A stretch of DNA of 59,874 bases from Candidatus Omnitrophota bacterium (GTDB lineage: Bacteria > Omnitrophota > Gorgyraeia > Zapsychrales > Fredricksoniimonadaceae), in the NCBI GenBank assembly GCA_043742785.1, contig JAYTXU010000070.1, positions 1-59,874 on the forward strand. Direction: 5' to 3'. A program made the translations under genes and the position numbers. The notes under the pieces were generated by a model. It ran no database searches. It was not told the DNA's origin and saw nothing but the letters and a program-made list of their open reading frames with translations. Numbering within the stretch: the stretch's first letter is position 1; the number at the start of each line of letters is the position of its first letter. This document shows, piece after piece, positions 18,514 through 22,518 of this stretch.

Positions 18514-19074
18514 CTATGAATTAGCATCCACCTTAAATCCCACCCTGGTTCTTTTGTAATCATCAGTAACAGGGATCACAATTAAACGACGGATAGCTTC
18601 AAAAATAGCCTGAATCTTCTTATCATGATCTTGATATTTACCTTCTAAATCTTCAATTTTACGGGCTAAATCTTTATGTGTTATCATTAATTCTCTTAGC
18701 TTTGAAAATGTCCGCATAATTTGAATATTAACATTAATAGCACGCTCACTGTTGAGAACACTCGAGAGCATAGCTACCCCTTCTTGAGTAAAAACATTAG
18801 GCATTTTTCTAACACCCATTCTTTCTTTATTGGATATCGCAATTTGCGACATCCAATTTTCAAGATCTTGGGTTGTTAGTTGAAACATAAAATCACGAGG
18901 GAATCGTTTAATATTCCTTTTTACTTGTTCATTGAGCCTGCTCGTTTGAACACCATAAAGTTTGGCTAAATCTCTATCTAACATCACTTTCAGTCCTCGA
19001 ATAAGATAAATCTTGCTTTGAATGATCTCTACCGGTATTTCACCTGCTGATTGTTCAACAATTTGTTCTTTCAT
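18514..19074 (-). CDS. ORF6N-domain DNA-binding protein, copy 1
   Basis: IRGLKVMLDRDLAKLYGV, VKRN..RFP.DFMFQL, FTQEGVAMLSSVL, VNIQIMR. Confidence 0.9.
   Translation of the reverse strand: MKEQIVEQSAGEIPVEIIQSKIYLIRGLKVMLDRDLAKLYGVQTSRLNEQVKRNIKRFPRDFMFQLTTQDLENWMSQIAISNKERMGVRKMPNVFTQEGVAMLSSVLNSERAINVNIQIMRTFSKLRELMITHKDLARKIEDLEGKYQDHDKKIQAIFEAIRRLIVIPVTDDYKRTRVGFKVDANS
18829..18857. repeat. Intragenic palindrome, ORF6N copy 1
   Basis: ATTGGATATCGCAA-T-TTGCGACATCCAAT; 14-bp arms, 1 mismatch. Confidence 0.9.
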
Positions 19075-19117
19075 AGCTCCCCTCATAGGTTAAAATTGGT
19101 TAAAAATATTTAGAAAC

Positions 19118-19675
19118 TTATTTAGCATCCACCTTAAATCCCACCCTGGTTCTTTTGTAATCATCAGTAACAGGGATCACAATTAAACGACGGATGGCTT
19201 CAAAAATAGCCTGAATCTTCTTATCATGATCCTGATAGTTACCCTCTAAAGCTTCAATCTTACGAGCTAAGTCTTTGTGCGAAATCATTATTTCTTTTAA
19301 CTTTACAAAAACTCTCATAATTTGAATATTAACTTGAACAGCTCTTTTAGACCTAAGCACGCTTGAAAGCATCGCTACACCTTGTTCAGTAAAAACATAC
19401 GACAAATACCGTTGACCTCCTCGTCCTATTTTTGACATGCCAATTTGGCATCTCAAATAATCCTCTTCTTCTTTACTTAGTTGGAACATAAAGTCTTCTG
19501 GAAAATGATCCCTATTTCTTTTAACTGCCCTATTAAGATGACCTGTTTCAACTCCATAAAGGATCGCCAAATCACTATCCAACATAACTTTATGCCCACG
19601 AATAAAGTAAATTTTGCTTTGAATAATTTCTACTGGTAATACATCTGCTGATTTCTCAATAACTTGTTCTTTCAT
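19118..19675 (-). CDS. ORF6N-domain DNA-binding protein, copy 2
   Basis: IRGHKVMLDSDLA.LYGVET, AVKRN, FPEDFMFQL, FTEQGVAMLSSVL. Confidence 0.9.
   Translation of the reverse strand: MKEQVIEKSADVLPVEIIQSKIYFIRGHKVMLDSDLAILYGVETGHLNRAVKRNRDHFPEDFMFQLSKEEEDYLRCQIGMSKIGRGGQRYLSYVFTEQGVAMLSSVLRSKRAVQVNIQIMRVFVKLKEIMISHKDLARKIEALEGNYQDHDKKIQAIFEAIRRLIVIPVTDDYKRTRVGFKVDAK
19431..19457. repeat. Intragenic palindrome, ORF6N copy 2
   Basis: TTTGACATGCCAA-T-TTGGCATCTCAAA; 13-bp arms, 1 mismatch. Confidence 0.9.
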
Positions 19676-19718
19676 GGATCCCCTCATAGGTTAAAATTGG
19701 TTAAAAATATTTAGAAAC

Positions 19719-20267
19719 TTATTTAGCATCCACCTTAAATCCCACCCTGGTTCTTTTGTAATCATCAGTAACTGGGATCACAATAAGACGACGGATGGCT
19801 TCAAAAATAGCCTGAATTTTCTTATCATGATCCTGATAGTTGCCCTCTAAAGCTTCGATCTTACGGGCTAGGTCTTTATGAGATACCATCAATTCTTTGA
19901 TCCTGACAAAAACCCTCATAATTTGAATATTAACTTGAACAGCTCTTTTAGACTTAAGCACGCTTGAAAGCATAGCCACCCCTTGTTCAGTAAACACATA
20001 AGATAAATATTTAGAATTTTGTCCTCTTTTCAAGATGCCAAATTGGCATCTTAAAGAATCCTCTTCTTCTTTACTCAATTGAAACATAAAATCTTCTGGA
20101 AAATGATCCGCATTCCTCTTAACTGCTCTATTAAGATGACCTGTTTCAACTCCATAAAGTTCAGCCAAATCTTTATCAAACATAACCTTCTGTCCACGGA
20201 TTAAATAAATCTTGCTTTGAATAATTTCAACTGGCACTGATGATTGTTCAACGACTTGTTTTTTCAT
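19719..20267 (-). CDS. ORF6N-domain DNA-binding protein, copy 3
   Basis: IRGQKVMFDKDLAELYGVET, AVKRN, FPEDFMFQL, FTEQGVAMLSSVL. Confidence 0.9.
   Translation of the reverse strand: MKKQVVEQSSVPVEIIQSKIYLIRGQKVMFDKDLAELYGVETGHLNRAVKRNADHFPEDFMFQLSKEEEDSLRCQFGILKRGQNSKYLSYVFTEQGVAMLSSVLKSKRAVQVNIQIMRVFVRIKELMVSHKDLARKIEALEGNYQDHDKKIQAIFEAIRRLIVIPVTDDYKRTRVGFKVDAK
20029..20055. repeat. Intragenic palindrome, ORF6N copy 3
   Basis: TTCAAGATGCCAA-A-TTGGCATCTTAAA; perfect inner 10-bp arms, 12/13 overall. Confidence 0.9.
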
Positions 20268-20310
20268 TCAGTCCTCCATAGGTTTAAATTGGTTTAAAAA
20301 ATCTAAGAAC

Positions 20311-20862
20311 TTATTTATCCACCACAAAGCCTACCTTGGTTCTTTTGTAATCATCAGTAACTGGGATCACAATAAGACGACGGATGGCTTCAAAAATAGC
20401 CTGAATCTTCTTATCGTGATCTTGATAATTACCCTCTAAAGCTTCGATCTTACGGGCTAAGTCTTTATGAGATACCATCAATTCTTTGATCCTGACAAAA
20501 ACCCTCATAATTTGAATATTGACCTCTATAGCTCTGTCACTATTAAGAACGCTCGAAAGCATGGCTACACCTTGTTCTGTAAAAGCATGCGGCATCTTAC
20601 GAACGCCTCCCCAACTTGATATCGCAAAATGCGATATCAAGATTAAAAATTCATCTTTTGTTAACTGAAAACAAAAATCCTCCTTTGGAAATCTTTTGAT
20701 ATTTCTTTTTACCTGTTCATTAAGCCTAAAAGTGGGTAAGCCATAAAGAACCGCCAGATCCCTATCAAGCATAACTTTATGCCCACGAATTAAATAAATC
20801 TTGTTTTGAATGATCTCAATTGGTAAAACACCTGCTGCTTTCTCAATAACTTGTTTTTTCAT
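20311..20862 (-). CDS. ORF6N-domain DNA-binding protein, copy 4
   Basis: IRGHKVMLDRDLAVLYG, LNEQVKRNIKRFP, FTEQGVAMLSSVL; GGAGG RBS before MKKQV. Confidence 0.9.
   Translation of the reverse strand: MKKQVIEKAAGVLPIEIIQNKIYLIRGHKVMLDRDLAVLYGLPTFRLNEQVKRNIKRFPKEDFCFQLTKDEFLILISHFAISSWGGVRKMPHAFTEQGVAMLSSVLNSDRAIEVNIQIMRVFVRIKELMVSHKDLARKIEALEGNYQDHDKKIQAIFEAIRRLIVIPVTDDYKRTKVGFVVDK
20615..20641. repeat. Intragenic palindrome, ORF6N copy 4
   Basis: CTTGATATCGCA-AAA-TGCGATATCAAG; perfect 12-bp arms. Confidence 0.92.
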
Positions 20863-20903
20863 AAATTCCTCCATTGATATATTTTCTCATTAAACTTTTG
20901 GCA

Positions 20904-21953
20904 CTATCTAACCCTCTCGCCGTTTTCGTCGAATATCACCGAAAGATCATGGATTAAAGATGTTCCTACCGACTGTTTTTCTAATGGCAGCGCCAAGCGC
21001 GCCATCGCCTTTAATTTGTTTTCCCATTGGCTTTTTTGCGAATCGTGTTGTGTTGACTCCTTATGCAATTCTTCCTGCAATTGAATGCTCTTCTGGCTCT
21101 TAGTTTCAAGCTCCTTTTGCAAAATGACCAGCTGTTGGGTCAACTCCTTATTCTTTTGCTGCTCATTAAAATATTGAACCTTGCTTTGATCGAAATGTTC
21201 CTGCAACTGGGCAATCTTCTGCTCCTTACCTTCAAGCTCCTTTTGAACAATGACCAGCTGTTGGTTCAACTCCTTATTTTCTTGCTGCTCATTGGAAGAT
21301 ACTTTATTTCTTTGATCTAATAACTGCATATCCTTGGAAACAGGCAAGATGGCTTGATGTTCCACTTTTTTCCAAATAAAGTATGCTCCCATCAAAAGAG
21401 AGCTAACAAACAACAAGAGAATCAATTTAAAAATCAATCCCTTGCTCTTCCATATCCATAAAATTCCGATCGCCAATATCCATAACCCTATATCCATAAA
21501 TCTTCCCATCAATCCAAAAGGAATGCGATAAACGCCGTAGGGATTATTAAAAGCCCAGCTATACATTTCATAATGCCATGATTCCACCCATTCTTGATCT
21601 ACCTTCAGTTTCGTACACCAGAATTCTAAAGGCCCTTGATTGGCAGGAGGCGCGGGTGGACTTGATGAAACTTTTATTTCCTGGGGTTGTTCAATGGGTA
21701 TAGACTGCGGAGATGGGGAAGCTTCGTTAGGTACGATTGGTTTTGCTTCAGGAATTATTTCAACAGGCGACTTCTTGATTTCGTAAAAAGCATCACGTCC
21801 CTCTAGAGTTTTCATTAGCTGTCCCTGGGCCGCTAAAACCGCCAAACCTTTTGTGACTGCACTTCTGGAAATTTTTAAAGCATTACTTAACTGAACCGGG
21901 CTCGCCTTGCCTTGAGTCTTAATGTATTCCAGAATCTGATCATTAACTGCCAT
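20904..21953 (-). CDS. Winged-HTH / two-TM / coiled-coil protein
   Basis: QILEYIK..GKASPVQLSNALKISRSAVTKGL..L...G wHTH pattern, Pro-rich linker, two hydrophobic segments, duplicated coiled coil; ATG at 21953 follows GGAGGG. Confidence 0.7.
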   Translation of the reverse strand: MAVNDQILEYIKTQGKASPVQLSNALKISRSAVTKGLAVLAAQGQLMKTLEGRDAFYEIKKSPVEIIPEAKPIVPNEASPSPQSIPIEQPQEIKVSSSPPAPPANQGPLEFWCTKLKVDQEWVESWHYEMYSWAFNNPYGVYRIPFGLMGRFMDIGLWILAIGILWIWKSKGLIFKLILLLFVSSLLMGAYFIWKKVEHQAILPVSKDMQLLDQRNKVSSNEQQENKELNQQLVIVQKELEGKEQKIAQLQEHFDQSKVQYFNEQQKNKELTQQLVILQKELETKSQKSIQLQEELHKESTQHDSQKSQWENKLKAMARLALPLEKQSVGTSLIHDLSVIFDENGERVR

Positions 21954-21994
21954 TTTACCCTCCTTAGCCTGTTCCTTCAGGCTTAGTTTAAATT

Positions 21995-22518
21995 TACGCA
22001 ATAAATTACTGCGTATTTACTCAGTAAATACCTGAATACTCACTCCCTGAATCCATCGCTAATCTCTTAAAACACATTGATATTCAATAAGTTACAAATC
22101 TTTATCCCTATCGTTTATCTTTAGGACCAAGCGGATGTGCGTAAAACATGAATAAAATATGAATAAAATATGAGTAAAATGTGAATAAACTTCCTTTACT
22201 GAGTAAATACGCAGTAATGACCTGAGCAAATCCAAATACTCTAATAGTTGTTGATTTAAGGAATACGCGGCGGAAGGAGAAACAGTGGAAATGCGTAGAC
22301 CTACTTATTTGATTAAATATTAACAAATACTTACTTAATAGTCAATTAAATATTTCAAAATACTCACCTCCTAGATAATCGCTAATGTCCATAAACATCT
22401 TGATATTAAATAAGTTACAAGTCATTAGCCCTATCGATTATATTCATGACCCCCAGGATGTGAGTAAAACATGAGTAAAATGTAAGTACTTTTATTTTAC
22501 GCAGTAAATTACTGCGTA
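21995..22518. promoter_or_regulatory. Repeat-dense non-coding block (palindromes, 24-bp inverted repeat, 11-bp tandem repeats, about 124-bp duplication)
   Basis: Repeats read directly from the sequence (see findings); a regulatory function is inferred. Confidence 0.6.

Follow-up and report, generated by a model that had tools for sequence, protein, structure and literature searches.

Why should four neighbouring genes for a putative DNA-binding protein each contain a palindrome centred on the same codon, and what would read it? This question is raised by a tandem array of four ORF6N (PF10543) genes, all on the minus strand and 182–190 codons long, at positions 18514–20874 of contig JAYTXU010000070.1 of a Candidatus Omnitrophota bacterium (assembly GCA_043742785.1). 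The stretch analyzed, termed the window in the following, comprises 59,874 nucleotides and corresponds to contig C70 of a genome of 1.9 Mb and 82% completeness, in which there are nine PF10543 matches, one of them a pseudogene. The ORF6N domain is common and largely uncharacterised, and it is part of a candidate defence family, PDC-S05 of the PADLOC collection. An earlier reading of the sequence alone had suggested that each protein may bind a site embedded in its own gene, so that site and specificity form a self-addressed pair. Our analyses support this suggestion: a predicted recognition helix and the palindrome are linked by a code that holds across phyla, predicts the sites of two sets of unseen genes, withstands a tree-based test and extends to synonymous codon positions, and it is from this code that we infer binding.

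Results

A palindrome at a fixed codon position of ORF6N genes

The palindromes were located by an inverted-repeat scan of the window, which recovered all four that the sequence-only reading had listed, each 27–29 bp long (Table 1). The shared centre that had been claimed for them was also found; it is the first base of the I/F codon within WMSQIAISN, LRCQIGMSK, LRCQFGILK and LISHFAISS in copies 1–4, respectively, and codon position 1 is likewise the centre of 99 of 107 sites in the wider set. Chance does not explain these palindromes: no more than 68 odd palindromes with at least 11/13 pairs exist in the entire 1.9 Mb genome, and eight of them are inside ORF6N genes. All ORF6N copies of this genome (9/9) have a palindrome of 21–33 nt, with differing arms, 15–17 codons before the conserved FTEQGVAM motif.

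Table 1. Genes, palindromes and predicted recognition helices of the ORF6N array; positions are those of the window, and site classes are named after the two inner variable bases (aa, amino acids; AF2, AlphaFold2; pLDDT, predicted local distance difference test)
Feature	Positions	Strand	Properties
ORF6N copy 4 (187 aa)	20311..20874	-	first transcribed; PF10543 E 7e-32; PDC-S05 by likeness to copies 1 and 3
ORF6N copy 3 (182 aa)	19719..20267	-	PF10543 E 7.9e-36; PDC-S05 E 3.5e-61; AF2 model, mean pLDDT 71
ORF6N copy 2 (189 aa)	19118..19687	-	PF10543 E 1.1e-33
ORF6N copy 1 (190 aa)	18514..19086	-	PF10543 E 1.8e-32; PDC-S05 E 4.4e-60
Dyad site, copy 4	20615..20641		12+3+12 nt, perfect (100%); inner half-site type TCGCA, class CG
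Dyad site, copy 3	20029..20055		13+1+13 nt, 12/13 pairs (92%); inner half-site TGCCAA, class GC
Dyad site, copy 2	19431..19457		13+1+13 nt, 12/13 pairs (92%); inner half-site TGCCAA, class GC
Dyad site, copy 1	18829..18857		14+1+14 nt, 13/14 pairs (93%); inner half-site TCGCAA, class CG
Predicted recognition helix codons, copy 4 (TFRLNEQVKRN)	20701..20733	-	R/E/Q at specificity positions, the class CG pattern; placed by homology to the copy-3 model
Predicted recognition helix codons, copy 3 (TGHLNRAVKRN)	20112..20144	-	R47, the class GC pattern; AF2 model
Predicted recognition helix codons, copy 2 (TGHLNRAVKRN)	19514..19546	-	code tables
Predicted recognition helix codons, copy 1 (TSRLNEQVKRN)	18913..18945	-	code tables

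Relatives were collected in a scan of one genome per species, which gave at least 595 of them; the best 80 loci, from Nitrospirota, Planctomycetota, Omnitrophota, Verrucomicrobiota, Patescibacteria, Bacteroidota and others, were kept and yielded 90 open reading frames (ORFs) from 79 loci and none from one locus. Together with the nine ORF6N copies of the own genome, these ORFs make up a set of 99 genes, and 96 of them have a site of at least 10/14 pairs. The strongest palindrome of the gene lies 15–18 codons before the FTEQGVAM motif in 80 of the 99 genes, 20–45 codons before it in 15 genes, most of which have a duplicated unit or longer loops, and elsewhere in four. The site is also present in 81 of 82 additional ORFs, taken from contigs of metagenomes and viruses, and in 29/29 ORFs of the best PF10543 loci of the own phylum, in which the family occurs in 101 of 151 genomes. 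Among six distant plasmid genes of Bacteroidota, Campylobacterota, Spirochaetota and Bacillota, five contain the site, including fusions with a different C-terminal domain, and the Haliovirga plasmid gene has no clear one. The family consensus, TTRAGRT-NN-CAA-W-TTG-NN-AYCTYAA, is a dyad of 25–27 bp, and its AT-rich codons (CAA, TTT, TTA) are retained even within GC-rich lineages.

Tandem, in-frame duplications of the palindrome unit were seen in 12 of 184 genes (for example at loci L087, L044, L061, L020, L150 and L179). The centres are 27 bp apart in three cases, 42 bp in four and 66 bp in one, and in five cases the second unit lies 216–303 bp further upstream; tandem units 42 bp apart are usually of the same class. 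Broken gene copies were encountered as well. An ORF6N pseudogene on contig C41 of genome G000 (~21699–22156; locus L096, 7699–8160) has retained the first 40 codons and carries an internal deletion of ~35 codons and a frameshift, and this deletion extends precisely to the left border of a 33-nt palindrome. In two other genomes, the ORF6N gene is truncated just past the palindrome (L101, L108). The gene may be prone to breakage at the palindrome.

The palindrome as a feature of the DNA

Homologues of the four genes were expected, under the proposal of self-addressed sites, to be more palindromic at this position than their peptides demand, and the excess is clear. When synonymous codons were shuffled within genes (200 shuffles for each of the 99 genes), the mean best score was 11.9 for the observed and 4.9 for the shuffled sequences; in 76 genes, 0/200 shuffles reached the observed palindromy, and in 94 genes, not more than 2/200 did so. 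The mismatched pairs of the sites (n = 167) comprise 27 G:T, 37 A:C and 103 others. As G:T pairs are not in excess over A:C pairs, pairing does not seem to be maintained via wobble intermediates, unlike in structured RNAs. The symmetry extends to a single central base, a property shared with the sites of two-fold symmetric proteins. The palindrome therefore looks like a nucleotide-level feature that belongs to DNA rather than to RNA. At the protein level, the palindrome codons 72–80 (copy-3 numbering) correspond in the AF2 model to the end of a helix (66–76) and the start of a low-confidence loop, with pLDDT values below 50 at residues 79–84, within the site-coding region. The low model confidence and the tolerance of unit duplications suggest that the protein constrains this segment little.

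A code that links helix and site

The AF2 model of copy 3 contains two helices, 31–38 and 42–51, in a helix-turn-helix (HTH)-like arrangement, and the C-terminal half is a long helix. Sequence searches gave no relative with a solved structure, and there was no Foldseek match at E <= 0.001; the best rows, Ski/Dachshund winged-helix domains, were weak (E 0.16–0.5) and were not used.

Among all residues, position 47 in the second of these helices has the highest mutual information with the site class, i.e., with the two inner variable bases (z 40.9, 1.65 bits), followed by positions 44 and 48. Residue 47 thereby exceeds even residues 77 and 74, which are themselves encoded by the palindrome. Every alignment column between helix and site remained at z < 4, and the helix–site link is therefore not a simple block linkage. 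Residues 43, 44, 47 and 48 share one side of the α-helix, and L45 and V49 are hydrophobic. The code was tabulated over 198 genes with 396 half-sites (Table 2) and comprises at least five site classes (CA, CG, GC/AC, TC and TT). Arg–G, Gln–A and Glu–C are classical preferences in protein–DNA readout. For the four copies of the window, we could confirm the pairing of arm type and helix that had been noted from their sequences: TCGCA occurs with RLNEQVKRN (copies 1 and 4), and TGCCA with HLNRAVKRN (copies 2 and 3).

Table 2. Helix residues and bases of the half-site; base positions are counted from the site centre
Residue	Base preference (half-sites)	Half-site
Q47	A at -4 (128/134), C at -5 (130/134)	TCACAA
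E47	G at -4 (78/78), C at -5 (78/78)	TCGCAA
R44	G at -4 (76/76)	goes with E47, TCGCAA
R47	C at -4 (104/108), G at -5 (91/108)	TGCCAA
K47	C at -4 (66/66), T at -5 (65/66)	TTCCAA
N44	C at -4 (60/62)	goes with K47, TTCCAA
L47	T at -5 (10/10)	TTTCAA
K43	G at -7 (239/240)	

The code that had been derived from the first set was applied to unseen genes. In genes from metagenome and viral contigs, it predicted both half-sites in 74 of 78 cases, one half-site in three, and none in one, in which the site was evidently mis-called; in unseen genes of the own phylum, both half-sites were predicted in 23 of 26 cases and neither in 3 of 26. The code reaches positions at which the peptide has no influence. 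Within the peptide F-Q-F/I-G, the Gly codon is GGA with K47 (33/33) and GGC with R47 (4/5; Fisher 2e-6). The codon of Ser74 is TCA with Q47 (45/45), TCG with E47 (29/30) and AGC with R47 (9/9), and the codon of Arg73 is AGG with K43 (112/117) and AGA with residues other than K (32/33; Fisher 3e-26, uncorrected for relatedness). A reading of the aligned copies revealed no complementarity between helix codons and site that could explain the link.

A tree was calculated from the alignment with the columns of helix and loop removed. Across its 89 rows, there are at least 49 changes of site class, and independent pairs on supported branches were concordant in 6/6, 7/7, 7/7 and 4/4 cases over four classes (24/24; the tests share rows). 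The covariation of helix and arms was thus upheld after phylogenetic correction. Shared ancestry of the four copies, which the sequence-only reading had considered as a possible cause of the helix link, does not account for it, as the code spans many phyla, predicts unseen sets and survives the tree test.

Sites outside of the ORF6N coding sequences

In five other genomes (2.7–5.8 Mb), a search for the consensus with up to three mismatches gave 20 sites versus 0 for a reversed control. Sixteen of these 20 sites were placed: 13 in intact ORF6N ORFs (one of them assigned by identity to a known site), two in ORF6N ORFs that are truncated just after the palindrome, and one, not within an ORF, ~330 bp away from an ORF6N gene. 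The collected loci, 401 kb in total, contain 206 sites, 164 of them in ORF6N ORFs and 42 outside. Of the latter, 28 are found 22–151 bp upstream of an ORF6N ATG, clustered near 25–34 and 52–61 bp, and several others are positioned just beyond a stop codon. Of the 28 upstream sites, only 9 share the reading frame of the gene (counted from the distances), which is about chance; the upstream sites are therefore non-coding. That such non-coding copies retain the full consensus shows that the site sequence is maintained for its own sake. Both halves match the helix of the adjacent gene in 12 of the 28 upstream sites, and one half matches in three. As own and foreign classes are both represented upstream, paralogues may regulate themselves as well as each other.

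An internal promoter was considered as a function of the palindrome and was rejected: the family consensus has no conserved -10 element at a matching place, and the AT-rich region contains 23 such matches, with 13.9 expected. The top promoter-like match of the region, TTGACA-18-AATAAT (11/12; 19432–19461, plus strand), starts in an arm of the copy-2 palindrome and is oriented antisense, and a weaker match is found in the sense direction (19456–19428, minus strand). In most family members, the site arms start with TTGA, which resembles a -35 box.

Discussion

The covariation of a dyad-symmetric site with a predicted recognition helix is what characterizes an HTH repressor with its operator, and this is the pattern seen in the ORF6N genes. 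It is likely that the ORF6N proteins bind the dyad sites in their own genes. The protein would be a sequence-specific binder of double-stranded DNA, most likely a dimer that is probably held together by the long C-terminal helix, and one face of the predicted recognition helix would read the variable bases in each half-site. In such a complex, residue 47, together with residues 44 and 48, would contact positions 4–5 from the centre, and residue 43 would contact position 7. The accumulating protein would then occupy the in-gene site, and in some genomes also the extra sites upstream of the start codon, and thereby block transcription. The outcome would be a negative autoregulation that needs no particular promoter, and such control would suit a solitary, horizontally mobile, and possibly dose-sensitive gene. 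In the array of the window, an occupied site in an earlier copy would be polar on the copies behind it, and paralogues within one genome could form an insulated or a cross-wired network. We assign a probability of about 0.6 to this account as a whole, i.e., to a dimeric binder with a cognate operator in its own gene, a helix code, and promoter-independent negative autoregulation. That repression of the own gene is the main purpose of the site is a more tentative part of it, to which we would give slightly less than even odds. The palindromes, their nucleotide-level nature and the helix–site code with its predictive power are what the data show; binding, dimeric state and repression are what we infer.

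The helix codons are only ~75–100 bp away from the site in the same gene, and specificity and target would therefore be inherited, transferred, and diversified together. By a narrow balance, we favour the idea that the family constitutes a natural library of self-addressed repressor–operator cassettes with a near-deterministic code, in which a unit of ~110 bp moves, recombines, and diversifies as one. The four copies of the window are a mosaic: between classes, nucleotide identity is 43–69% over aa 61–90—the palindromes do lie in the most variable segment, as had been noted before—versus 82–100% over aa 136–180. The four copies diverge most over aa 31–90, the region that includes helix and site (likewise 43–69% identity between classes), and copies 3 and 4 are 98–100% identical over aa 121–165. 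Since the last 45 codons are 82–100% identical and aa 31–90 are divergent, gene conversion may homogenise the scaffold and not the specificity module; the mosaic fits a conversion that spares the helix-plus-site module.

Several observations weigh against our explanation. In the own genome, palindromes of the family type are found solely inside ORF6N genes, and a search of this genome for a regulon gave non-ORF6N core-type palindromes with at most 10/13 pairs, three of which were inspected and are not in ORF6N contexts (C67:2822, C55:14389, C55:15157). As there is no site outside of the ORF6N genes in this genome, a classical promoter operator does not exist there, and repression would need a roadblock. 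Furthermore, 13 of the 28 upstream sites of the collected loci match the helix of the adjacent gene in neither half, and these sites speak for cross-regulation or for a different purpose no less than for autoregulation. A regulator that targets its own family alone has no evident benefit for the host, and autoregulation is therefore not the whole story. The recognition helix 42–51 was taken from an AF2 model of moderate confidence, as no solved relative was found, and the tree-corrected test of the AGG/AGA–K43 association includes just two pairs on supported branches. The code is broken by the genes at L015 (first set) and at L202, L206, and L222 (phylum set). At L015 and L206, the Q47 helix predicts class CA, and the internal site is of class CG. 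A class-CA site does exist at L015, 56 bp upstream of the start codon; the L015 protein may act at this position, with the internal site being left to another paralogue.

Binding could also be real and serve a purpose other than repression: the site could be a self-mark or a nucleation point in cis, similar to a centromere, or it could permit resident copies to recognise incoming DNA that carries a gene of the same class, and either could belong to the phage defence proposed for PDC-S05. We regard this as unlikely, albeit worth serious consideration, as the full-length match to the PDC-S05 family (E 3.5e-61), the confinement of the sites to ORF6N genes and their remnants in the own and the five other genomes, and the nearly one half of upstream sites that are of a class foreign to the adjacent gene would all agree with it. 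According to a preprint, a PDC-S05 representative with a RhuM domain lowered the plating of phages T7 and T5 on Escherichia coli B ~1000-fold (bioRxiv 10.1101/2024.09.26.614923), and ParZ of Borrelia burgdorferi is a precedent for a DNA-binding protein that binds within its own gene (PMC9712426). However, the Virulence_RhuM domain with which the active representative is described there was not found by Pfam in the window proteins, nor did Pfam detect ParB-like or nuclease domains in them. The lack of a conserved partner gene among 146 neighbours and the mere five relatives in the viral contig collection also speak against this reading.

It is very improbable that mutation or recombination generates the palindrome as a by-product, for example through template-switch correction or at a rearrangement hot spot, without any recognition by a protein. 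Template switching can convert one arm of a palindrome to match the other, and the broken copies that end at the palindrome (the deletion edge in the C41 pseudogene, the truncations at L101 and L108), as well as the tandem duplications of the unit, would be in line with this. Such an origin would not explain, however, that the arm sequence is tracked by residues ~25–30 codons away and that the sites of unseen genes can be predicted from the code; nor would it explain why phyla from AT-rich to GC-rich retain a specific sequence, beyond symmetry as such, and why the consensus is maintained in non-coding copies. The hairpin-driven diversification that the sequence-only reading had offered as an alternative fails to account for the covariation with the helix and for the copies in non-coding DNA. 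An mRNA hairpin, acting in processing, pausing, or as a protein-binding stem, could be formed by the sites in genes, which are always in a transcribed region and have a stem potential of 12–16 bp; we nevertheless attribute next to no likelihood to it, since G:U pairs do not exceed A:C mismatches (27 vs 37 of 167), the complementarity continues up to a 1-nt centre that no hairpin loop would need, copies occur upstream of start codons regardless of frame, and the covariation with an HTH-like helix fits a readout of the duplex. Just as little can be said for the idea that the covariation reflects contacts within the protein, between helix residues 43–48 and residues 73–78, with an incidental symmetry of the DNA. 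Residues 74 and 77 indeed covary with residue 47, but synonymous codons follow the helix as well (GGA/GGC for the same peptide, AGG/AGA for Arg73, TCA/TCG/AGC for Ser74), and a coupling at the protein level is insufficient because the code reaches these synonymous positions; moreover, the palindromy is far above what the peptide requires.

The explanation that we prefer, a protein that reads a dyad operator in its own gene, has parallels on two sides. In Bacillus subtilis, spo0J/parB contains parS, and the small-terminase gene of phage P22 contains the pac site. In these cases and in that of ParZ, the target lies within the own coding sequence, as in ORF6N genes, and gene and site are linked; they are single cases that are tied to segregation or packaging, whereas the ORF6N site is family-wide, comes without partner machinery, and has at least five co-diversifying classes. 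On the other side, HTH repressor/operator pairs, such as cI/Cro of lambdoid phages and the controller C proteins of restriction–modification systems, likewise have a helix that reads a dyad site, helix and operator covary, and the pairs are usually autoregulated. The working principle of a helix reading a covarying dyad operator is thus already known from classical repressors and restriction–modification controller proteins. Controller C proteins bind a palindromic C-box in their own promoter region (PMC4824078). The operators of all these pairs are located in the promoter region outside of the gene, whereas the ORF6N site is at a fixed codon position of the own DNA-binding domain in the entire family, and the fold is that of ORF6N, for which no solved relative was found. 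Phage antirepressors (ORF6N/Bro-N/KilA-N with KilAC/ANT) share the N-terminal ORF6N domain and the PHROG anti-repressor match with the window proteins. They have a KilAC/ANT C-terminus, in contrast to the window proteins, whose C-terminal half is a long helix and whose genes are found among housekeeping genes. PDC-S05 is a candidate family that has been defined by genomic association, and the window proteins match its hidden Markov model (HMM) in full length.

In open-access papers and preprints, taken without their supplements, we found neither a mention of an in-gene site in work on PDC-S05 nor a description of an in-gene palindrome in the ORF6N family, which agrees with the sequence-only reading, to whose author no description was known. 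What we did not find described there is the combination of a family-wide operator at a fixed codon, a co-diversifying helix with at least five classes, and the absence of partner machinery. If the proteins bind their sites, the ORF6N domain gains a concrete activity and a readable recognition code, and the coding sequence of an entire family would be shaped as the target of its own product, a case of overlapping codes and of regulator–target co-evolution. The classes CA, CG, GC/AC, TC, and TT would then represent orthogonal protein–operator pairs with simple rules for reprogramming. If the idea of self-addressed cassettes is true, a mobile candidate phage-defence gene would be controlled independently of its landing place.

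Annotation and surroundings of the array

All four copies match PF10543 with 110–123 bits over model positions 1–86 of 86 (gathering score 27.8 bits), and the PADLOC HMM of PDC-S05, PDLC04856, is matched by copies 3 and 1 over 4–161 of 177 positions (E-values in Table 1). PHROG anti-repressor families (phrog_4792, E 1e-29) are matched by the N-terminal part only. Pfam gave no match to an ANT/KilAC C-terminal domain at E <= 0.01 in the window proteins and none to Virulence_RhuM, ParB-like, or nuclease domains in the ORF6N proteins of the window.

A conserved partner gene was not found: 146 flanking ORFs belong to 144 Pfam families, none of which has more than three members, and many of which are housekeeping families. 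The viral contig collection contains five relatives and the phage collection five records. Plasmid-borne relatives have other neighbours; in a Bacteroides ovatus plasmid, the ORF6N gene adjoins integrases and ArdA, and in a Treponema plasmid, it lies within a type I restriction–modification operon, between the methylase and specificity genes and next to Fic. At the plasmid loci L092, L093, and L094 (Haliovirga, Treponema, and Butyrivibrio), ORF6N is fused to a C-terminal domain of ~150–200 aa with a conserved HDRF-I-D ... GASLKD motif, which we take to be reminiscent of phospholipase-D-type nuclease motifs.

Three kinds of mobile or partitioning elements were considered and rejected. Transposon-like ends were not seen, as the nine copies with their 250-bp flanks are alike from ~40–60 bp before the ATG to the stop codon and have no terminal repeats. 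For a recombination site (attC-like or a recombinase target), a recombinase was lacking among the 25 neighbour families listed; single cases may exist among families hit by one neighbour, and the copy on the B. ovatus plasmid does have integrase genes next to it. A centromere of the ParB/parS type would not agree with a protein that has no ParB-like Pfam domain, nor with neighbourhoods in which no family occurs at more than 3 of 146 neighbours.

Directly upstream of the array is a gene for a protein of 365 aa (20904–22001, minus strand). Its N-terminus weakly matches winged-helix domains of the MarR/DeoR/ArsR type, and the protein also contains hydrophobic stretches and a repeated, coiled-coil-like segment, QQLVI-QKELE. 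About 30 bp separate the end of this gene from copy 4, so that gene and array may be transcribed together. A second inverted repeat is present in the conserved 3′ part of copies 4 and 3 (20365–20421 and 19775–19833), with arms of 14–16 nt that are 86–88% complementary and separated by a gap of 25–31 nt.

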